Shown here one piece after another: positions 15,687 to 28,617 of a DNA stretch of 64,000 bases (within the stretch, counting starts at the first letter, position 1; the number at the start of each line of letters is the position of its first letter). Below the pieces are notes generated by a model. That model saw only the letters and a program-made list of their open reading frames with translations. It did not search any database and was not told the DNA's origin. The position numbers were made by a program, and so were the translations under genes. The DNA lies in the NCBI GenBank assembly GCA_022813865.1, contig JALDZX010000018.1:248001-312000 (forward strand), in the 5' to 3' direction. The stretch is from Xylographa opegraphella. Lineage: Eukaryota.

Positions 15687-17144
15687 CTAAGATTCTCGTG
15701 TCGAGACCTGTCCCGCGAGTTTCCCACGTAGCAGATCCCAATCACTAAACAACTTCTCGATCTTAGGAACATCCCATCCAAGATGCAATCCCACTCGAGC
15801 GAAGTAAAACACCTTCCGGGCTAATCGATATTGTGGCAGGTAACAGAGCCTACAATACTCTTGCCCCATCAGTGCTTCAAATGTATCTTTCAAGATCCGC
15901 ATAGCAGGATCTTTGGGCACTTTGTAACATTCCGGCTCATCATTGTGATCATCATTAGCCCAATCCCATATCCAATGAGGCGCCACACAGGACTCAAAAC
16001 GAGGCGCAAACATTGCTCCATCCCAGTCCAAGACACCAGTGATCTTCAAGAGGCCATCGTCGTTAACCTGTATCATGATGTTCCTAGGAGCAAGATCCCC
16101 ATGTTCGAGGACAAATGGTGAACCACACAGACAGCCTAGCTGATCCATCTCCTTTGCTATGGTGGACAGACGTTCCAAGAGTGGCCCATCGAATTCAGAT
16201 TTAGAATTCTTCTGATGGCATTCAATCTGCATCAGAATCATACTGAGTATTGTTTGTCCTTCCAAAATGTTCTTTGCCCCATTTCTAGGGTCGTCAGGTG
16301 CCCAAACATCACGAAAATGGAGGACCTGCACTTCTGCTTTCTCAGGACATCCTCCTTCGACGAAGCCAAGTTCTCCAGCTACCGAGCTTGTAACGCTTTG
16401 AATCGAGCGAAGGAGTTCAGCATACTGATGTACAAAGGCATACTTCTGCGCGAGGTTCAGCCGTCGGTAGGCCGTACATAGTACCTCGCCTGGGATACGT
16501 AGCTGCAGAGTGTAAGGGCTTTGAATAGCGTTTGCCGATGTCAGATCGTAGCTGATGATGCTTGGAGTTGGGATTGAGGTGTGGTTCCGGATGTAGTCCA
16601 ATATACTAATCCCTGGAAGGATAGAATCTGTTATGAAGCGCGGGATGCTTATAATGTATCTTGTCTCTACAACTCCATTGGTGTCTATTGCAGACTCTGA
16701 GGGAAGACCTTGCAACGTAGACTTTCGAACCGTGGACAGCAGCTTGGGAGGTTCAAGAGGATTCGTGTTGTGGACTTGAAGTGTAGAATTTGGTAGATCA
16801 TGCAGTGGTTCGGTGGTTTCAGACTTCGTATTGGGCGAGAGCACACTGCGGATTGTGAGTCCAACAACTCGGTTGGAAGCGCCTCCCGGAAGGTACTGAA
16901 CAGTTGAATCATCGATCGGTGAGAGTGGCCACAAAGTCTTGCAGAGCTCCTGAACATCATCCTTGAACTCTGAAAATGGTCTCTGGCTGTACATATATGT
17001 TGAGCCCGACGACTCTGAAGACGTTTGTGACTTTCGGAAGGTTTGGAAGGTTCGTTTCCAGCGGCGGGATCGACACTTCACACGGAGACAGGAACAACCA
17101 AACACCAAGCGCAGAGCGCTGGCAACATGAGGAAAGAAACGCAT
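15687..17144 (-). CDS. Aminoglycoside phosphotransferase/choline kinase-like (APH) family protein
   Basis: Intronless 485 aa with GGASNRV, Brenner motif HGDLAPRNIM and GVLDWDGA. Confidence 0.85.
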   Translation of the reverse strand: MRFFPHVASALRLVFGCSCLRVKCRSRRWKRTFQTFRKSQTSSESSGSTYMYSQRPFSEFKDDVQELCKTLWPLSPIDDSTVQYLPGGASNRVVGLTIRSVLSPNTKSETTEPLHDLPNSTLQVHNTNPLEPPKLLSTVRKSTLQGLPSESAIDTNGVVETRYIISIPRFITDSILPGISILDYIRNHTSIPTPSIISYDLTSANAIQSPYTLQLRIPGEVLCTAYRRLNLAQKYAFVHQYAELLRSIQSVTSSVAGELGFVEGGCPEKAEVQVLHFRDVWAPDDPRNGAKNILEGQTILSMILMQIECHQKNSKSEFDGPLLERLSTIAKEMDQLGCLCGSPFVLEHGDLAPRNIMIQVNDDGLLKITGVLDWDGAMFAPRFESCVAPHWIWDWANDDHNDEPECYKVPKDPAMRILKDTFEALMGQEYCRLCYLPQYRLARKVFYFARVGLHLGWDVPKIEKLFSDWDLLRGKLAGQVSTRES

Positions 17145-17271
17145 GATATCAGCAGCCTGAATAATGACAGTGAAGGAAGGAAGGTGAACTTGAAATGAAG
17201 AAGTCGACTTTCATTCTGGGTAGGTAGGATTCAACCATCAACACAGGAATTGCTCGCGGTGAAGCTTCACC

Positions 17272-17280
17272 ATGACTCAT
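17272..17280. promoter_or_regulatory. Optimal Gcn4/CpcA (AP-1-like) site ATGACTCAT in the divergent APH/cupin promoter
   Basis: Exact 9-mer about 130 bp upstream of the APH ATG. Confidence 0.4.
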
Positions 17281-17764
17281 GGGTCAATTTCTTGGAAACT
17301 TTTGTGAATCGATGGGAGGCCCTCTACCATATTCTCTGTGTTTGCTGCTGGCAAAATTGTGCAGGAGCTGCATGTTCATGAACATTATAAATAATGATCG
17401 CTGGTAATCAGCAATACAGAGCTGTTATTTAATACGGCTACGCTAGTTCTGGCATTATTATAGCGTCCACTCCGTATTTTTGGATCTGAGAGTTAACCCT
17501 GGTTTGTTTCAACCTGGCGAGCACAGTCAGCCGTGTTTGATTATCGGCTTATCATCCACGCTATTCTACTCCGTAGGAGCAGCCACGGAGGATTGTCAAC
17601 GGATGTCCGCGGATCTTCATGAATAGACTACTCAATTACCAAGAATGGGTCACGGAAACGGAGAAGATGGACTCAATACATGTCCTGTGCGGAAATGGCA
17701 AGCCAATCTTCTTTACGAGTTCTGAAGATGTCCTGAAAAATCAAGAACCTCGTAAATTATCGTC

Positions 17765-18538
17765 ATGACTACGTGCTTTGTGACGAAAGCGAGCGAAATT
17801 GTTCCTACGTTTGTTTCTAAGCCTGGAAATGTGGAATCAGCATATATCCGTAACCTCATTTCGAAACTGAATCTCCAGACGCATTTGGAAGGAGGATACT
17901 TTGTTGAGACAGACCGCGATACTCTACGCGTTCCCAATCCTTTTCGAACAAATGGCGTGAACCGAGCAAACCTACCATCAGACGGCAACCAGGATGACTC
18001 TTCTCGATCTGCCAGTACCACCATCTATTACTTGCTGACACCCGCGAATCCGACCGGCGTGTTCCACAGGAATAAGGCAAGGACTATGCACACACTGCAC
18101 AAGGGACGAGGACGATATGTGATTATCCATGCAGATCAGACCGAGCATGGTCAGGAATCAAGGGTTGAGACGTTTGTGGTCGGACACGATGTCGATAAGG
18201 GAGAAAGACTACAGTGGCTCGTCGAAGGTGGAAAGTACAAAGCGAGTTTCCTGTTGCCGGATGTTGAGGGTGGTGACCAGAGCGATGGGTTACTTATCAG
18301 TGAGGTGATTGGGAGCCGATATTGTACTTGATATACCTTATTCTGTACATGTTACACTGACACTTCCCTACAGACTGTCGTACCGGGCTTCGAATACCAG
18401 GATCACGACTTTCTGCTAGCTGGTGCCCTACATGATCTAGTCACGGCCGAACAAGAGAAAGAGCTTCGTTGGTTACTGTCGGCAAATGCATACGATGATC
18501 ATCTAGAACCTGTAGCTAACGACAGTCGTTCACCTTAG
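17765..18538 (+). CDS. DUF985 / Cupin_5 family protein (yeast YML079W-like)
   Basis: LNLQTHLEGGYFVET, RSASTTIYYLL, GERLQWLVEGGKYKASF. Intron ~18305-18372 joins LLISE to TVVPGFEYQDH; stop at 18538. Confidence 0.88.
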
Positions 18539-19107
18539 CTGATGCCTGATAGGCATCTAGTTCTGGTTTCAACGCCATACTCATTATAGGATTCCCTTAC
18601 TATTCGTAATGTACGAATAAGAATATATATCTTAACTTACCTTACGACTGCTCCTTCTAGCATTATAAGCTTGATAGATGGCGATCAGTAGGAGTAGAAA
18701 GCATCCCTCATGCAGATCAAACTTCTCCGGAGTTGAGATTGCCAGAAGCCGTGTCACAATTTCGTAGCCACTATTATGAAGTCATTTCTGAATGCAGACC
18801 GTGCCAATACATTACTTCCACAACTATATACAAGTCTTATTGCCATCCCAATTCTCTATAGATTAACAACAATCAATTTGTCAGGGATGATAATCTGCAC
18901 TTAGAGGAAGTACATGGAGTTGTATCTATCGGGGTTCGTTACCCGGTGAAGACTTCTAACCACCAATGTAACCTGGTGTCAGTTCCACAATAGCAACAAG
19001 ACAGCGCACCTCCAAGCACCCGTCAATCATGCCAGCACGCCATATATCATATCTTGCATGCTCTTCAATATGATATAGGATCAAACGATTCTTCTCCCAC
19101 CAACACA

Positions 19108-20604
19108 ATGGCCACCAACATCCCCATCCCCATCCTCGCGCCCCCACGAACGCCCACCCCACCCCCTGATGATGACCAGGTCGGAATGGCAGGACTAGGC
19201 CTGGACGGCATTGGGGACCTCCTCTCCCCTACCAAAGGGCTCTATGATCCAAGCTCCCTCTCGCCCATGGATGAGAACTTCGCCGTCAGCCGCTTCAGCT
19301 CAAGCCCATCCCTCGCGCTTTCAAGCCAGCCTCTCAGTCCCACAAGCCCCAATTCCCTCTACAGCTCTATATCCGCAGAAAGCAATGGTAGTAAAAGCGA
19401 ACTGTCTATGCAGAATGGCAAAGGGCCTTTCAACTTCCAGCCTATGTCGCTGGCCAAGTCGCCCATCACGAAATCCGTGAACACAATTCCTTACACTCTT
19501 CGTCTCCACAGCTACTGACCGAGTTTCCAGAGCGTTGGCCAGCGCCGCGGCCACAAATACAAACACAGCAGCGTCTCGCACCAGATCTTCCTCGAGCCCA
19601 CTCCTCGCGCCCCCATCGCGCTACCCTCCTCCCTTCCGATTCCCACCTTCGCGGAATGCCGGCGCAGCATGTCCACGGAGCAAAAACAGCGCTTCTACTG
19701 GTCCATCTGCCACATGGCCGTCGCAGCCTATACACTCTGGAGTGCATCAGGCTCGCTGGCCCTCACCGCGCTCTCACACCTCATCCTCTTTGACTCTTTT
19801 GGCGCGATGCTATGCGTGATCGTCGATGTCCTCTCCAACTTCGAGGTGTGGAAGCGCTCCAGCATCCGCCACCCCTTCGGTCTCGAGCGCGCGGAAGTCC
19901 TCGCCGGCTTCGCGATGAGCGTGCTACTGCTCTTCATGGGCATGGACCTGATCTCGCACAACCTGCAGCACGTGCTGGAGGAGATGGGCCAGCACGAAGC
20001 GCACCACACGCACGAGCACGAGCGCGTTACCCCTGGCGGGATCGACGCTGCGAGTCTGCTGGCGATCGTGTCGACGGTGATTTCGGCGCTGGTGCTGAAG
20101 AATCACGCACGGATAGGTAAGGTAATGCGTTTCGCGTACATCGAGACCCTGCCGTCGATCCTGAGTAACCCATCGCACTTCCTAACCATCACGTGCTCGT
20201 CCATGCTGCTTCTCCTGCCGCTGCTCTCCGTCCAGATGTACACATGGCTCGACCGCGCGCTGTCGGGCACCATCGCCCTCAGCATGTGTATCCTCGGCGC
20301 GCGCCTGGTCAACACCCTAGGCCTGATGCTGCTGATGTCGTACACCGGCGGCGGCGTCGCTGCCGTCATCCGCGACATCGAGTCCGACCCGTCGGTGACG
20401 GGCATCGAGGAGGCTAAATTCTGGCAGGTGCATTACGGGCTGTGCATGGCGAACTTGAAGCTCAGGGTCCGGGGCACCGACGACAATATGGTCCGGCTGC
20501 GGGACCGCGTCACGAGTCTGATCCGCAATCGCCTTGGAGGGGGCTACGGGGGCGGAGGGCAGCGGTGGGAGGTGTCGACGCAGTTGGCGGTTGAGAAGTA
20601 TTGA
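19108..20604 (+). CDS. ZRG17: Cation diffusion facilitator zinc transporter, Zrg17-like
   Basis: RRGHKYKHSSVSHQIFLEP after intron 19477-19530, SSIRHPFGLERAEVLAGFA, His-rich loop, multiple TM helices. Confidence 0.85.
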
Positions 20605-20905: not shown

Positions 20906-23329
20906 TCACAGAGCCAAATCAATGTCCTCTATAGATGCCTGTGAACGGGTCACCATGCCACGCATATCCGGCGGCACTACGTTCGTGGCAGTCTCGTACA
21001 GCGAACGCTGTGGTGTTTCCGCCTCTGGTATAAGCTCAGCTTTTTTGAGCCAGGCATCACGCGTAGAACCACCCAATGGGTGTCTGCCATGGCGACCCCG
21101 TACTCGGGATAGTTCCTCTCGCATGAGATCATGCATTTCCATGATGTTGTCCTGGAAAGATGCCGTCGACGGGGCGAACTGGATATGGAGTTGTGAACAG
21201 GGGTGCGGCATTAAGTGTCTAAATCGCGATTGCCAGTACACGAGGGCGTTAGATAGATCGCTTCCTCCTGTGTAGTCGGGGAAATAGGTTTTCATTGGGT
21301 CGTGGAGAAGCTTCTTCCTGAAGAGCTCGATTTTGGTGAAGATGAGGAAGAAAGCAGAATTCGTGAACCGCTTGGATGCGATGAGCGATTCGAACAACCC
21401 GAGCGAGTCCACCAAAGGGTTCTAATGGGGCAGCCTGATTAGTCTGGTAGTCATGTGAAGAGGCTGCTTGTTCAGCTGTGAATTCACCATGCCATACCAC
21501 CAATCCACGTTATAACCCGAGAGTCCGACAGTGAAAGCCACACAGTCCACGGCTTCAGATACATTTATCCACTTCCTCTGCTCGGATGGAACCCCCGCAA
21601 CATCATGCACATCATATACATCACCCTCGATCATTCTTAGCTGACTGGATATACCAGTAGATGGGGTCCACAGGCCAAGAATGTCAAGGTCTGAAGGGAC
21701 GAAAGGTTCCTTCACAATTCGTTCCGCATGGTACAAGTAACTTTCTGTCAGTAAGCAAAGCCATCTATCCCGAATGAGCTGGGGGAAACGCGTACTGAGC
21801 AATATTGTCGTGGCGCATTCTGGTCTGTGTGATCATGAAATTCTGCACAAGGTATTCATTCCATAGTTCTTTGACAGCTCCAATTACTCGAAGAAAATTA
21901 CTGTGGTCATACTTCAAACACTGCCTGTTCTCAAGGACTGTAGCCTGAAGAGCCTAGAAACCTTTAGTGGGTTTCTGCTGAGAAGGAAACGATTCGAGCA
22001 CACGCACGCTGGAACGTCCGTCACCAAAACTCATGCTTTGATTTGCTAGGCTGGCGAGACAATAATGCATATCAGAAATTGAATTTCCAAGCAAAGCGCG
22101 AATTGGTTGGACTGCATCTTTGCGATTCTGCAACTCGAATGAACTACCAGAACGAAGTTGAAATTGCTTGAAGAGTGTGGATTTTCCAGATTGCGTAGGA
22201 CCTATTCCAAACAGCCATCAGTCTACTACTAAGATGATTAAGGCTAGCAAAGAAATTGTGGCCTGAGGCGGGCCATACTTTTGTCTTACCTAGAATCAGA
22301 ATTTGGAACGTGGGAAAGATTTCGGAGCCTGGGCCACTGGAGTTTCCAGCTGTGCCATCTGCTAGAAGTCTCTGTAAATCATTTGCGTACACTTGATGGT
22401 TATACAGCTCGTTCACAAAGATAGGCAATGCAAAAACTGATAAGTTTGAAACCTCTGAAAGACTGATTCCAGATAACACAGACCATCCCGTGGTTCGGGC
22501 ACCGGATGATGGAAGAGATAGTGAGGAGTGTTTCTTATTGGCCCTGCTGTAAACTGGCGACGCTTGCAGATCCTTTTCAAAGGTGTAGCTAAAACTCATT
22601 GTTCGAGTGATAGGGAAGTTGCGAAGCCCTTCCGTCTATGTTTGATCTCGTCATCGCATTGTCGTCCAATATATCTTCTTGGGCTCCACTCTTCATAGAC
22701 CCATATCGGCTTACCAAGTCATGTCCTGTCTCTAAAGATCGTACCCGGTTCAAGAGATCGTGGTTGCTTGATAATGCTTGCTGAACGACACGGTTCAGTT
22801 CTTTAGCACAGTCGCGAGCCTCCTCTGTTCTCACACTATCTCCACAGGCTTCTCAGCCTCTGTAGTGTTTTTCGGAGAGGTGAAGCGTGGGGGATTCTTA
22901 CCAGGAAAGCATTGTTAGCATGAGATTCAATGAAATTTTCGATGTCTGGACACGGGATAGAATTCTCCTTAGAGTCTGATCTCTCAACGCCCACCGTAAC
23001 CGCTCAATAATAGTGTTAGTCTGAGTGCTCTTCAAAGGTTCGAGTGCCTTTTCGAGATCTGAGAAGGCTATCATGCAATCTGTGAGTGTGACGATAACTT
23101 GATCCAGCATGATCATAGACGTCCGAGATATAGACGCAACCTGGATACCTAGAAGGAAAGGTCTTAATCCTCCCAGGCAGGAACCAATGCCGTGGACCTC
23201 TGCCAATAAATGCCGGGCGAGCTCAGGCGCGCCAGTGGTGTTATTGACCAGTCTTATCAGAAATGTAGTAACGCTGCCCACTGCAGTTAGGAGTCCGAGG
23301 ACAGAAACAGAAATTGAGAGAGGATCCAT
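20906..23329 (-). CDS. HeLo-like (fungal STAND N-terminal) domain fused to a divergent G-protein alpha domain, 671 aa
   Basis: Exons 23329-22902, 22835-22715, 22635-22290, 22201-22008, 21953-21796, 21740-21488 and 21421-20906 splice in frame. N-terminus MDPLSISVSVLGLL..APELARHLLAEV..RLRWAL..LNLMLTML. G-alpha motifs ILILGPTQSGKST, YLYHAERI, DVAGVPSEQRKW, DSLGLFESL, FLIFTKIELFRKKL, YFPDYTGG. Confidence 0.8.
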
Positions 23330-23392
23330 TATTGGTATCGGCGTTCGCCACGAACGCAACCATCAGAAATCAATTATTCTATCGTAGCAGCT

Positions 23393-23760
23393 CTGCTTAT
23401 CAATCCTGAGATCCACAAGCTGAACCCCGATGCTGACATCAAAGGACTGCAGCTCGACATGGAAGACTGCAAAGGTGTAATTGCATTTGCACAAGGCGTC
23501 AAGAAAGAGTTTCAGGACAGGCATGTTCTTCTCCTGAATGCTGGCATCGCTTAGCTGGGCTACAAGGTCAGCGTGACAGAACATCAGAAAGCAACGCGTG
23601 TCCATCATCTCTCCAGCTCGCTGCTTTCCTTCAGCAACTGCCGCTCCTGGAGACAACTAACGGCACGAGCGGGTCAGGCAGCAAGACTGAGCTGGGTGGG
23701 AAGCTGGATGCAGCAGTCAATTTCTTCAGCGAAGATGCAATCGGTCCTGCCGAAATCATG
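23393..23760 (+). pseudogene. Internal fragment of a retinol-dehydrogenase-like short-chain dehydrogenase pseudogene
   Basis: Translates LQLDMEDCKGVIAFAQGVKKEFQDRHVLLLNAGIA*LGY..., then with frameshifts LPLLET and RLSWVGS. In-frame TAG at 23552-23554; no N-terminal TGxxxGxG. Confidence 0.6.
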
Positions 23761-24787
23761 GATGAACAAATAATTACGAGTAGCTTCCAATTGTCGAGGT
23801 TAGCTCTGTATGAGTGTTGCTATATGGCTGGCATGAGCCTGATTCCTTCGATAGTTCAGCAGTGATGGAAACATCGTTTTCCTGCAAACATCTGTTGCTG
23901 CTGCGTGTCTAAGGGATATCTATATTTGCAACGTGCATTCTGCATAGTTAGTAGGTCAGTGACGAGAAATCCCTGCAGCACATCGTGCACGTGATCGTCG
24001 GCCCGAAGCGCGAGAGATCTCGTGCTCTGATTGGCCAAGACGCGAGGGTGGACGTCAACTGATAAGAAATGCACCCCGCGGCGGCCCCACCTCCTATAGA
24101 CAATGCAAGCAGCCAGTCCAGTGACACGGGCGTATGACAACAGGTGCTGATGCGTGCATGGCTTCGACTCTGCATAGATCTGCTGAGATCCTTCAGCCCG
24201 TCGATAAGCGCCTGCATCGCCCGCAGCCATGCTCACTACATCACTCGTGCTTCAAGGCTCACCCCGAGACATGGCTGACCACGGGTTGTGCCTGCCGAAG
24301 CTGATCACTTGAACCGGAGATAGGCTGCACCTCGAATGCGAACGTGCTCCCTTTCGGATGGATCGTGCTTGTACACTCCCCAGTGTCTTCGACTTCTCCA
24401 ACATATCATACTGCATTTCCATTGCAAGCATATATAGACAGACCCTCGCTTTTGGATCGATTCCATTGCCGCATGACGTCCTATGAATTCTATTGAAGGT
24501 CGAGGACTTTAGTAATTTAATCATTAATATTAGAATGCCACCGATCTAGAAACTCACGCCTTGACGTGTCGCTCTCGACCTTGACGCGCGATATTATTTC
24601 CTCCTACATCGAGGTATAACGGGTGCAACTTCTGGCCGAGGTCGAAAACAAGAGGAGGTTGCAAAAGATACATTATTCCGAGAACTCCATTCATACACCA
24701 TCATCTCAACCTCAGGCGACTCATCGAGTGAGGTTGCAAACACTGCTATGATAATCCGGAAGGAGCGTGATATACAATTGTGAAGAA

Positions 24788-26101
24788 ATGGCAGCGTGGT
24801 TATCGTCGATCGGGTTTTCGCCCTCCCTCCCAGACCACTGTACACCACAAAACTACTTCCTCACACGCCTCTCCTCCGACTTCCACACCTGCATCCCCAC
24901 GCCTCTCGCTTTCTTCTCGACCCTGCTGGGCAGTCTGAGCATCCTGTCATGGCTGTTCGCCCAGCTCCCTCAGATCTTCAAAAATTACAGCCTCCAGTCC
25001 ACATCGGGGCTCTCGATCTTCTTCTTGATCGAATGGTGCCTGGGAGATGCAACGAACCTCTTCGGCGCGTTGTTGACAAATCAGGCAACGTGGCAGGTCG
25101 TTGTCGCTGGGTATTACGTCTTCGTTGACGTGGTGCTCGTCTTGCAGTACATATGGTACACGCACTTCAAGCCATGGCGGGAAGAGCACAAATCGGCGCA
25201 AGGCGGTCGACCGAGATGGGGTTCGGCTAGACGGAGACCCCCGGTCATCGATGGCGTCTCCAGTTCCGGCGAAGCGTCCAGCCGACCCTCCTCCTCAAAC
25301 GACCCCAACCGTGACGACAAAGCCTCCAGCAACCCGCTCCCGGCCCCCTTCAACGCCTTCCGCTTCCCGGCCTCCTTCTCCCCCCGCGAAAAAGGCACCC
25401 CCAGCTCCTCCCACCCCACGATCCACCGCCTCCAGCACACCACGCCCTCTCCCGCACCCTCACCCAAAACGCTCCTCCTCATCTCCATACTCTGCGCCGT
25501 CCTCAGCACCGCCTCCCCCCTACCCGCCCCATTCCCCACAACGCACGCCCACCCCGCCGAAACCCCCACCGCCACCCTCGGCCGCCTCCTCTCCTGGACC
25601 TCCACCCTCCTTTACCTCGGCTCGCGGCTCCCGCAGCTATACAAGAACCACCGACGACGCTCAACCACAGGCCTCTCCCCTTCTCTCTTCGTCGCCGCCT
25701 TCTTCGGCAACCTCTTCTACGCCTGCTCCCTGCTCGCCAACCCCCTCGCCTGGGCCTCCTACCCGCCCTTCGGCCTGCACGGCTGGGTCGGCCCCGCCGG
25801 CAGCGACCGCGCCACCTGGCGCGCGCTCGCGGCTCCCTTCTGGCTCGGCGCCGCGGGCGTGCTTGCTCTCGACGCCGCCATGGGCGCGCAGTTCTTGGCA
25901 TTTGGCGAGAGGGAGGCGGTCGTGCGTGTGAGGGATCGGAGGGGGGCGAGTCATTGGCGGAGGGTCAGTGGTTGGATGAGGGGGTGGGTGCCGAGTGTGC
26001 AGGCTGGGGGGGAGGGCGTTGTCGTTGTGCAGGAGAGGAGGGGCTTGTTGCAGTCGGAGGGGGCGGGGAGGGCGGGAGAGGGGTATGGGGGTTGTGGGTG
26101 A
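24788..26101 (+). CDS. PQ-loop vacuolar cationic amino acid transporter (Ypq1/Rtc2-like)
   Basis: Two PQ loops (WLFAQLPQIFKNY, YLGSRLPQLYKNH) and a C-terminal ERRGLL dileucine signal. Confidence 0.9.
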   Translation: MAAWLSSIGFSPSLPDHCTPQNYFLTRLSSDFHTCIPTPLAFFSTLLGSLSILSWLFAQLPQIFKNYSLQSTSGLSIFFLIEWCLGDATNLFGALLTNQATWQVVVAGYYVFVDVVLVLQYIWYTHFKPWREEHKSAQGGRPRWGSARRRPPVIDGVSSSGEASSRPSSSNDPNRDDKASSNPLPAPFNAFRFPASFSPREKGTPSSSHPTIHRLQHTTPSPAPSPKTLLLISILCAVLSTASPLPAPFPTTHAHPAETPTATLGRLLSWTSTLLYLGSRLPQLYKNHRRRSTTGLSPSLFVAAFFGNLFYACSLLANPLAWASYPPFGLHGWVGPAGSDRATWRALAAPFWLGAAGVLALDAAMGAQFLAFGEREAVVRVRDRRGASHWRRVSGWMRGWVPSVQAGGEGVVVVQERRGLLQSEGAGRAGEGYGGCG

Positions 26102-26909
26102 TGGGGTGGGGCGGGGAGGGTGATGGGGTGGTGGGTTGGATTTGTGTACTGAGTTGGGCATTTTGGAGGGGAGACTGGGTGCGCTGTGGGTTGAGTGGAC
26201 TGGTATTTGGAGTATGGAGTGATGGCATTCGAGGCATTGGTTGGTGGGTTTGGTGATAGCATCATTGCATGGTGAGGCATTGCATCACGAAGGTTGCCGT
26301 TTCGCAAGATTATACACAAGACTGCAGTCAATAGCACTAGGAATGTAGTAACGCTTCGCATGTAAAGTTTTTCCATTGGGTATGAATTACTAAGTTATCT
26401 TTACTGCATTTCGGGAAGCTGTATCCGAGGTCTCGCAACCTCATTTTGACTAAGGATTCGCAACCAATGGTCTCATTTCTGTACCAATACATTCGCGTGC
26501 AGATCCTGACAAGAGCGTGTACCATTGACTCCGGGACTGAAGAGCGAACTGGACATCTAGCCCGACGATGCCGAGCTCAGATACGCCTTCACAGCTAGTC
26601 ACACCGGTCTTGTCAACCACGTCCTCATACAAAGTATTGGAAGCTTCACGGCGTCTCTGCCCTTCTGTTTTTGCTCGTTGGTAACTTCCGTACAGGGTTC
26701 TCAGGGATGCGGATCTGGATTGTACGAATGCTCGCTTCGAATTCGAGCAGCTCTCAACGGCTGTGTATTTTGGTGAGATCTATCCTCTTCCAGGCCTGAT
26801 AATAATCGTGGAGCTCGCATTTTTGAACCAAGTACCTGCTCTGGACGTGGAAACCCCAGAGCCGCTGTCTCGGTGACCGAGCTCGGTAGAAACCTCCTGA
26901 GCATAAGAA

Positions 26910-28515
26910 CTACGAGCTGTGCTTCTGTAATAATTTTGGCTTCCCACCCAGGAAAACATAAGACAGAACCGACACGACAAGGCACATAGCCGCAACCACT
27001 GCATTCATATTGCCGTAGCCGATGGAATCACGCAGAGAACCTGCAAGTAACGGTCCGAGGGTCAAGCCAGCGCTGAATACCTGTGAGATGTGTTAGACAT
27101 TTTGAGAATTAAGCACGAATACCAGAAGTTATACCATGGAATTGATAGCGTAAAGCTGTGCATACGGGCCCTCCCCACCAAAGAACTCCTTATTGTTTTT
27201 AAAGTATCCCTCGCAAACATATGACGCCTCGACAATAGATGGCGAACCGATCGCAGCGAGACCCACGCCATTCAGCGCAACGACAACACAAAATACCACA
27301 ATTTGCTTCGTTCCGCCCGCTTGTGGTAGCCGGAGGAGAATCAGAGCAGGAACTTGCCACGCGAAGCCTAGCACAGCCGCCGGCTTAGGGCCATACTTGT
27401 CGACGAGCTTTCCAGCAATAGGACCACCGATGAGGTAGGGCACCACGAGGGGCGCAAAGAGTAAGCCAGCCTTGAGGGGGTCGAAGCCGAATAGCGATTT
27501 AGCTTCTGTGGGGATGGTGGCGTCGAAGGTGGAGAGTAGAGTGGCTTGCATGAAGGCGACGAGTTGGGCGACGATAAGCCGCGAATTGGAGAGACAATAG
27601 AGAATAGGGAGATTGCGAACCCAGTTTGGGGGTTCAGACGTGATTTTCCATTCGCTTTCTTGTTTGCCATTGCCGATGAGAGGGTCTTCCTCGTTAGGCT
27701 CGTGGTCTTGGGATTCTTCGTCTTGCGGTGTGCCTGAGTCGGGAGCTGAAGTATCATCTGCAAGGTCGACCTTGTACTTCTTCGCAGTCTTCTTCTCGAT
27801 GATCAAGAAGCGCATGATAAAGTCGATGCCTAAAAGCGTGTATGCGATGGAGAATACAGCACCATAGCCAGCTTTTTCATAAAGTATTCCACCAAGGATA
27901 GGTGCTCCTAGTTCTCCGATACTGAACCACGCAGGAAAGTTAGAACAACCGTAGAAACCAGCCGTCGGAAAAGATAGTGAATTTGTACCTGATGAACCCG
28001 AATATACTACCAATTGCCACGCCTAGATTTTCTGCTCCGACTGTATCCAAGAGTAAAGCCAGTCCGATTGTCCAGACCACCGCTGCGCTGACACCCTGTA
28101 GAATCCGTGCAACAACGAGCACGACGATGGTTTGTCCCAAGTGAAGCATTACGGTGGCCGAAAGAAGTGCTACGAGGCCGAGCAAGAATGGCAATTGGCG
28201 TGCAGAGAGCCTGTCGGCAATGATACCGGCCGGTGGGGAGGAAATTACTGAGGCACCTGCATAGGCGGCTAGAAGGGCGGAGGTATAACTTTGAATCTTG
28301 CTGGAGGGCACACTGACACGGTCTTCGAGGATGAAAGGGAGGATTGGCACAATCAAGCCATATAAGAAGAGATCCTGCAGGCAATTAGAAGTGGTGGTTA
28401 CGTTATTAATCAGTGTGTGGATGCTCACTGTAAAAAGACCTATTCCGACAGTGCTGATGATGAATTTTGTCGACGACCTGAATTTCAGGAACATCGGGGG
28501 CTTTGAGGCACTCAT
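26910..28515 (-). CDS. MFS transporter, vesicular amine transporter (SLC18)-like fungal family
   Basis: KFRSSTKFIISTVGIGLFT|DLFLYGLIVPILPFIL, ARILQGVSAAVVW, GPYAQLYAINSM|VFSAGLTLGP. Three introns; stop at 26910. Confidence 0.88.
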
Positions 28516-28617
28516 CGTATTGAGACAACAATCAAAACACGAGACAATTGTAAGTATGAGAAGCCTCAATGTCTGCTAATACTTTCTGTGGTGAAATCCC
28601 GATGATTTTCACATGCT

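Follow-up and report, generated by a model that had tools for sequence, protein, structure and literature searches.

HeLo domains, and likewise those of the HeLo-like (HELL) type, are kin of the four-helix bundle of MLKL, and it is helix 1 that drives membrane attack (PMC12881547). The family PF17111, now named PigL_N and earlier Helo_like_N (PMC9815663), comprises the HELLP cell-death domain and the amino termini of NLR proteins (PMC9815663, PMC12881547). Here we describe a gene of Xylographa opegraphella, a lichen-forming fungus of the order Baeomycetales (Lecanoromycetes), in which a module related to PF17111 stands ahead of a G-alpha domain. The gene occupies 23329-20906, on the minus strand, of a 64,000-nucleotide stretch of contig JALDZX010000018.1 (the window), the coordinates at which an initial annotation, made from the sequence alone, had placed it. 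The fusion of PF17111 to a dead G-alpha domain is real and conserved in lichen-forming Lecanoromycetes, and the copy in the window carries a frameshift between the two parts.

The protein resembles HELLP and the all-in-one HeLo-like-NACHT NLRs in the amino-terminal position of the module, the MDPxS start, the hydrophobic first helix, the predicted bundle and the PF17111 match found in relatives. It differs from them in what follows: a Ser-rich linker and a G-alpha domain are present instead of a carboxy-terminal amyloid motif, a NACHT or NB-ARC domain or repeats. The central NOD domain and the carboxy-terminal repeats of NLR/STAND receptors are absent as well. MLKL, composed of a four-helix bundle, a brace and a pseudokinase, is comparable in the logic of its design, a membrane-targeting amino-terminal bundle (here putatively so) joined to a dead nucleotide-binding enzyme fold, and also in bundle structure, the latter at scores within the range of generic helical bundles. 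However, the dead enzyme is here a G-alpha fold and not a kinase, there is no sequence similarity, and the resemblance is one of design only. The plant proteins XLG1-3 have links to immunity and cell death (PMC13185490), but their extension is Cys-rich with a nuclear localization signal (PMC13185490), whereas a PF17111-type helical module is found here, and the two arose independently, in plants and in Lecanoromycetes. With the canonical fungal G-alpha proteins (MAG A/B/C, Gpa1-3), which also occur in lichen fungi, the protein shares the PF00503 fold with its Ras-like and helical domains. In contrast to these it has no Gly-2 and no catalytic Arg and Gln, its G4 and G5 motifs are altered, and the amino-terminal module replaces the alpha-N helix.

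A literature search for the combination of a HeLo-like domain with G-alpha revealed no description of this architecture. None of the publications listed for PF17111 deals with G-alpha, as judged by title or start of the abstract, and G-protein and GTPase terms are absent from the main text of two surveys of fungal NLR proteins (PMC4986451, PMC9815663) as well as from that of a cell-death review (PMC12881547). Divergent G-alpha proteins of lichen fungi, on the other hand, are in print. For Cladonia grayi, Armaleo et al. (2019) reported 'a unique set' made up of five divergent G-alpha paralogs of MAG C-like type, seen in Endocarpon pusillum too, and proposed a function in symbiotic signalling (PMC6652019); a 2025 review repeats this account (PMC12161586). 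The portions of both accounts available to us mention neither an amino-terminal module nor a loss of catalytic residues. The five Cladonia paralogs, compared by their published description only, may belong to the same family. The reserve of the initial annotation on novelty was fair.

The family and its G-alpha domain

A database search with the last exon (exon 7) retrieved the protein annotated at this locus by NCBI with 100% identity. This protein (P0001, 476 residues, 'guanine nucleotide-binding protein subunit alpha') covers the G-alpha part only, and a precomputed PF00503 match is recorded for it. The gene itself is real. In the stop-to-stop frames of 23329-20906, an amino-terminal helical region and a linker are followed by a G-alpha domain in three pieces. 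In a Pfam comparison of the seven exon read-throughs, three exons matched the PF00503 profile, and exon 7 alone reached 61.2 bits, above the curated cut-off of 48.8 bits.

The same order of domains, with the amino-terminal module ahead of G-alpha, was found in the closest relative, a protein of Xylographa soralifera that the exon 7 search also retrieved (P0002, 738 residues), and in three further relatives from a word search. A profile search of 1.84 billion representative sequences yielded full-length matches together with many partial models; PF17111 and G-alpha were both detected in 12 of the 36 representatives scanned. A third search, based on the family alignment, gave 36 proteins at E<=1e-20. 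Of these proteins, 28 contain both PF17111 and PF00503, six PF17111 only and two G-alpha only. Short models derived from metagenome-assembled genomes make up many of the 36. The 32 named proteins among them all come from lichen-forming fungi, and most of their genera presumably belong to the Teloschistales. Among the lineages checked, Xylographa and Circinaria belong to the Ostropomycetidae and Letrouitia (Teloschistales) to the Lecanoromycetidae, so that both subclasses of the Lecanoromycetes are represented. The family is widespread in this class. Database labels describe its members as hypothetical or as plain G-alpha proteins, and the taxon label of an ESM Atlas cluster with 94 members reads 'Ascomycota' only. 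One protein of Teloschistes chrysophthalmus (P0177, 1004 residues) is also listed with the carboxylesterase-type domains PF00135 and PF20434 in precomputed matches, and may be a merged gene model.

The predicted structure of P0001 is that of a true G-alpha fold, in which a helical domain is inserted into a Ras-like one. In the AlphaFold2 (AF2) model, the predicted local distance difference test score (pLDDT) is above 90 at residues ~95-415 and low in the linker and in a tail of ~60 residues. Foldseek places the model with Gq, Gi and Gt (E~1e-22, template modelling score on target 0.75-0.83). A HMMER alignment to human Gi alpha-2 shows Trp at the position of the catalytic Arg in switch I and Val at that of the catalytic Gln in G3, and has TKIE for NKxD and APST for TCAT. 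The P-loop (GxxxxGK[ST]) is kept and reads GPTQSGKST. The lipidation site Gly-2 is absent both from the full model, which starts MDPLSI, and from the annotated short form, which starts MSFSYT; the region before the P-loop consists of module and linker, in place of the alpha-N helix that serves G-beta-gamma. The losses and the intact P-loop had been read in the same way in the initial annotation, as had the statement that the protein is not a classical transducer of G-protein-coupled receptors, which these residues bear out.

Loss of the catalytic residues is not peculiar to the window. Motifs were counted over 46 family rows, in each case among the rows aligned at the position concerned. The catalytic Gln of G3 is found in none of 33 rows (Thr or Ser in 22) and the switch-I Arg in two of 31 (His in 15, Trp in five, Tyr in five). 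All three canonical controls in the same alignment carry every motif, and the loss of the GTPase residues is therefore a family trait and ancestral. The P-loop Lys is present in 40 of 42 rows and the Asp of DxxG in 29 of 32, and the G4 motif has the form NKxD in 20 of 32 and [TS]KxD in a further seven; P0005, a member from the Teloschistales, has NKAD. Nucleotide binding thus looks preserved in most members, and on these residues the family G-alpha domain should bind GTP and not hydrolyse it, as a 'pseudo-GTPase'. In a quick maximum-likelihood tree, a single branch separates 25 family G-alpha domains from 27 canonical ones. Its support in the Shimodaira-Hasegawa-like approximate likelihood ratio test is 88, which is not decisive; the tree is consistent with a single origin of the family domain and is not proof of it.

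In one subclade of the family (P0011, P0012 and P0028), the P-loop Lys or DxxG is lost in addition (GLRSSGMTS, DTKD, DSTK). Nucleotide binding is probably gone in these domains.

The amino-terminal module and its partners

The curated cut-off of PF17111 is 27.2 bits. Three relatives, 56-40% identical to the window sequence, pass it (P0003, 32.4 bits; P0005, 35.7 bits; P0008, 41.8 bits), and 51 of 61 aligned module sequences match PF17111 at E<=0.001. Exon 1 of the window is 56% identical to P0003 and 73% identical to P0002, compared with 61% for the G-alpha part of the two Xylographa proteins. The slower module and the faster G-alpha part fit a design in which a conserved effector is coupled to a sensor that evolves faster. 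Residues M1, D2, S5, S9 and G12 hardly vary among the 61 aligned sequences. A hydrophobic helix spans residues 4-27, with a mean Kyte-Doolittle hydropathy of 1.78 in the window, and this first helix is hydrophobic in all 61 sequences (1.18-2.08, median 1.44). For exon 1 (143 residues, without the last helix of the domain, which is encoded by exon 2), AF2 predicts a helical bundle with a pLDDT of 81.4 and helices at 3-30, 36-59, 75-100, 106-115 and 117-142. The 25 best matches of an exhaustive structural alignment include MLKL (4btf, Z 11.7, root-mean-square deviation 2.4 A over 100 residues; 6ux8, Z 10.8) and the coiled-coil domains of the plant NLRs Rx (Z 10.2), NRG1.1 (9.9), Sw-5b (9.7) and MLA13 (8.8). 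For residues 1-320 of P0003, the nearest ESM Atlas clusters all contain PF17111, one of them with the Ses_B amyloid motif in 13% of its members. By sequence, exon 1 gave two chance-level matches only among PDB chains; a profile of the family alignment retrieved G-alpha chains only, because this alignment also includes the G-alpha columns. Taken together, sequence profiles and structure prediction make the module a credible HeLo-like domain, related to the PF17111 family.

Our best explanation, to which we give somewhat less than an even chance, is a switch of MLKL-like design, in which a HeLo-like bundle is joined to a G-alpha domain dead for hydrolysis, and of which the X. opegraphella copy is split, decaying or rescued by splicing. 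A family protein begins with a predicted PF17111 helical bundle of ~190 residues with a strictly amino-terminal hydrophobic first helix, which we liken to the helix by which executioners of the HET-S, HELLP and MLKL types insert into membranes. A linker, conserved and rich in Ser, connects this bundle to a complete G-alpha fold, a putative pseudo-GTPase in which the P-loop for the nucleotide is kept and the Arg and Gln for GTP hydrolysis are lost. By analogy with MLKL and the 'all-in-one' HeLo-like NLRs, the dead G-alpha domain may serve as a regulatory or sensing switch, and the membrane-targeting module would be held back or set free depending on the nucleotide or partner state of this domain. 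The anatomy, the membership in the family, the loss of catalytic residues throughout the family and the frameshift are shown; membrane targeting, control by the switch and a role in death or immunity are what we infer from these likenesses. The immune or cell-death sensor of NLR-analogous type considered in the initial annotation is likewise putative. If this is correct, a necroptosis-type membrane-attacking domain would be controlled by a pseudo-GTPase, where MLKL has a pseudokinase and NLRs have a NOD domain. The lichen 'expanded G-alpha paralogs', so far discussed as receptor-coupled parts of symbiosis signalling, would have to be read differently, since family proteins would be unable to cycle GTP normally and would carry a module resembling a death domain.

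Several results weigh against such a switch. The initial annotation had expected profile matches to both Helo_like_N and PF00503, and this was borne out for PF00503 and for the relatives. In the window, exon 1 matches PF17111 with 19 bits only (E=0.001, 143 of ~190 domain residues), which is below the cut-off. A Foldseek comparison of the module with PDB gave no match at E<=0.001 (best IncA, 0.07). IncA is also the top match of the exhaustive alignment (Z 13.2), where structural matches of helical bundles at Z<13 can be generic, as the tool itself warns, and HET-s is not among the 50 best matches listed. No amyloid or prion motif family was found among 61 module-bearing proteins, and Pfam detected no NACHT or NB-ARC domain in the window exons, the 36 relatives or the 61 module-bearing proteins; the same three sets contain no carboxy-terminal repeat domain of NLR/STAND type. 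Among 32 aligned rows, only the window copy has Glu in place of the Asp of NKxD, and it reads DVAG for DVGG; these changes, like its EQRKW, are unique or rare. Its nucleotide binding may therefore be weakened. Being frameshifted, this copy may do nothing at all. Finally, the other partners of the module would fit a plain membrane-anchoring role equally well.

These partners were determined in 61 module sequences drawn from the best 150 matches of a profile that included G-alpha, so that the sample is biased. G-alpha is present in 22 of them, RhoGAP in five and PBD in three, and CDC24, RhoGEF, a Spa2-homology domain, Beta-lactamase and DUF676 occur once each; NACHT or NB-ARC occurs in none. In other fungal proteins, the module is joined by the same Ser-rich linker to RhoGAP, CDC24/RhoGEF, PBD plus beta-lactamase, and DUF676 (P0063, P0079, P0091, P0151, P0064, P0031). 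In an ESM Atlas cluster of 77 members, Ras/Roc occurs with PF17111, the latter in 12% of the members. Within this biased sample, the partners appear strikingly confined to GTPase signalling.

The main rival to the switch is a protein whose module anchors it to the membrane or cortex and is not an executioner. The protein would then be a permanently 'on' or nucleotide-independent G-alpha-like scaffold akin to the plant XLGs, maybe in symbiosis or polarity signalling. The fusions to RhoGAP, RhoGEF/CDC24, PBD, the Spa2-homology domain and Ras/Roc, all of them parts of polarity or GTPase signalling, agree with an anchor, and the module stands where a normal G-alpha has its lipidated amino terminus and alpha-N helix. 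Plant XLGs likewise combine a long amino-terminal extension with a G-alpha-like domain, are poor GTPases and act independently of nucleotide cycling (PMC13185490), and symbiotic signalling is the function proposed for the divergent Cladonia grayi paralogs (PMC6652019). However, the HELLP cell-death domain and NLR amino termini belong to PF17111 (PMC9815663, PMC12881547), and the near-invariant free amino terminus and the bundle fold resemble executioner domains. We consider the anchor somewhat unlikely.

The restricted choice of partners has a further possible meaning. G-alpha, RhoGAP, RhoGEF, PBD and Ras could be integrated decoys, baits that mimic GTPase hubs, and modification of the bait would release the death domain. 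The faster evolution of the G-alpha part agrees with this. Against it, the bait lacks the Arg and Gln, which are the residues attacked by known G-alpha-modifying bacterial toxins; we know of no attacker of such baits; and the limited set of partners comes from the biased sample. The decoy is thus possible but weak, and in our estimate very improbable.

Returning to the MLKL-like switch, a wider claim can be derived from it: lichen fungi would hold undescribed, NLR-independent death or immune switches with a HeLo-like bundle under a dead G-alpha domain and sister proteins with RhoGAP, RhoGEF, PBD or Ras, either as counterparts of MLKL or as integrated decoys, and the 'unique G-alpha paralogs' of Cladonia would be such switches. 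In this breadth we regard the claim as doubtful, with a small chance of being right.

The linker (F.FE.DL..SRVY.R ... LSLPSS..GWS.LSG.SLA.VSNIS...LPI) equals the folded domains in conservation, although its AF2 model is of low confidence (pLDDT 37-58). No Pfam family matches this Ser-rich segment. Complex prediction for the module with linker and the G-alpha part gave no verdict, at a score of 0.00.

The frameshift in the X. opegraphella copy

The initial annotation had described an intact fusion of 671 residues spliced from seven exons. Joining these exons (23329-22902, 22835-22715, 22635-22290, 22201-22008, 21953-21796, 21740-21488 and 21421-20906) indeed yields 2016 nt, made up of 671 codons and the terminal stop, with no internal stop. 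All motifs quoted for this model are at their places: MDPLSI at residue 1, RLRWAL at 110, LNLML at 134, LGPTQSGKST at 298, WTPSTG at 440, DVAGV at 462 and TKIE at 529. Protein models back five of the six proposed introns, introns 3-6 being those used in P0001 and intron 1 being backed by the relatives P0002 and P0003. Intron 2 (22714-22636) is without such backing.

In a tblastn comparison with the window, P0002 is matched without interruption in frame -1 between the start codon and 22613 (...GRASQLP), at this junction, and the very next residues of P0002 resume in frame -2 (PITRTMSFSYTF...). The profile of the amino-terminal module behaves in the same way: its positions 144-215 match in the first frame and its positions 217-311 in the second. 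Because both matches are continuous across the change of frame, the halves are parted by one extra base and not by an intron. This base, within 22612-22615, puts the module and the G-alpha part in different frames, and no sequence is missing between them. Read straight on, the upstream frame ends at a stop (22591-22589) seven codons past the frameshift and yields a product of 224 residues. Among contigs of three DNA runs, those of one, likely the source run, cover the locus; this independently assembled contig is identical across the whole gene at a depth of 156 (at contig level, where minor variants are invisible). Since this second contig agrees, a simple assembly slip is unlikely, though its reads are probably the same ones. 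An intact fusion in this copy would require either that the 1-nt frameshift be ignored or that an intron delete conserved coding sequence, and is therefore not supported.

Splicing of the 79-nt segment 22714-22636 would restore a fusion of 671 residues, lacking 26 residues of the variable linker and functioning like the rest of the family. Its signals (GTAAGC donor, TAG acceptor, and a branch-like ATGAC placed 15 nt before the 3' end) equal those of the five supported introns in quality, so that a rescue splice is possible; the joined frame is open throughout, the deleted stretch falls in the part of the family alignment that is least conserved and rich in gaps, and the downstream frame of 476 codons is free of stops over five exons, its deviations from the family consensus being within the usual range (see below). 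However, the segment is coding in relatives. The 26 codons it would drop align residue for residue with P0002 and include the DDxxTxR found family-wide, and the 'donor' consists of Val-Ser codons that are also present in P0002. The junction has eight GT...AG pairs of 40-130 nt that restore the frame, so that merely finding one is no evidence for an intron, and the NCBI model does not use this splice. The other seven pairs were rejected, as each deletes a conserved segment (the linker motif or the F.FE.DL motif). True splicing of the 79 nt is in our view unlikely.

A dying pseudogene without function in X. opegraphella, with the family alone being of interest, would agree with the one-base frameshift, the stop seven codons further on and the identical second contig. 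The changes TKIE, DVAG and EQRKW, unique or rare ones at positions of nucleotide binding, and the truncated public annotation point in the same direction. On the other side, the 476 downstream and 224 upstream codons contain no further stop, all splice sites are intact, and P0001 departs from the family at six of 34 conserved columns, compared with 1 to 18 of 32-34 columns in other members; there is no clear sign of decay in P0001, and a rescue splice could repair the frame. We rate this pseudogene as less than likely, on about the same footing as the membrane anchor. The X. opegraphella copy is thus either a recent pseudogene, or a split gene encoding a HeLo-like protein of 224 and a G-alpha-like protein of 476 residues, or a gene rescued by the 79-nt splice, which would give the 671-residue form. 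Its practical meaning is smaller than that of the family, the public annotation being truncated and the gene frameshifted.

Exon map and surroundings of the gene

The exons, introns and neighbouring genes are listed in the table below, with exons 2 and 3 delimited by homology and not by the proposed second intron.

Features of the fusion gene and of its neighbours in the window, in window coordinates.
Feature	Position	Strand	Remarks
Exon 1	22902..23329	-	Start codon 23329-23327; candidate HeLo-like/PigL_N module: hydrophobic first helix, then helical bundle
Intron 1	22836..22901	-	66 nt, GTAAGA...AGATAG; splicing yields MLSCVRTEEARD as in P0002
Exon 2 (by homology, frame -1)	22613..22835	-	Last helix of the module and variable linker with DDxxTxR; tblastn of P0002 residues 10-226, module-profile positions 144-215
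Frameshift site	22612..22615	-	One base more than in relatives, within CCCT of the coding strand
Proposed intron 2	22636..22714	-	79 nt, GTAAGC...ACATAG, branch-like ATGAC 15 nt from 3' end; coding in relatives
Exon 3 (frame -2)	22290..22611	-	Conserved linker F.FE.DL..S.VYSR ... LSLPSS..GWSVLSGISLSEVSNLSVFALPI; module-profile positions 217-311; ATG of P0001 at 22599-22597
Intron 3	22202..22289	-	88 nt, directly before the P-loop; used by P0001, unspliced in public P0002 model
Exon 4	22008..22201	-	P-loop G-PTQSGKST (22176-22201 + base 22290), start of helical domain; PF00503 positions 27-91
Intron 4	21954-22007	-	P0001 model
Exon 5	21796..21953	-	Helical domain; P0001 model, AF2 helices 127-230
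Intron 5	21741-21795	-	P0001 model
Exon 6	21488..21740	-	Switch I WTPSTG (21653-21670), G3 DVAGV (21590-21604); PF00503 positions 142-220
Intron 6	21422-21487	-	P0001 model
Exon 7	20906..21421	-	G4 TKIE (21326-21337), G5 APST, ~60-residue low-confidence tail, stop 20908-20906; PF00503 positions 230-323
APH-like phosphotransferase	15690-17210	-	Pfam scan
Cupin_5	17756-18328	+	Pfam scan
Cation-efflux protein	19519-20601	+	Pfam scan
PQ-loop protein	24755-26098	+	Pfam scan
Major facilitator superfamily transporter	27132-28575	-	Pfam scan

The public model of the X. soralifera protein P0002 deviates from this map at two points. The intron that splits the P-loop is read through, which adds ~35 spurious residues before GKST, and the model starts nine residues upstream of the conserved MDxLS.

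A six-frame profile scan revealed no second module and no second G-alpha domain in the 64-kb window. No NLR, HET or amyloid-motif gene is found among the neighbours (15690-20604 and 24755-28575), which thus provide no immune context. The stretch upstream of the start codon (23330-24750, 1.4 kb) contains only short open reading frame fragments on both strands, without any Pfam match. Fragments at 23318-23865 had given the impression, by eye, of remnants of a short-chain dehydrogenase; this assignment was dropped, as they too have no Pfam match. The promoter of the gene must lie within 23330-24750.

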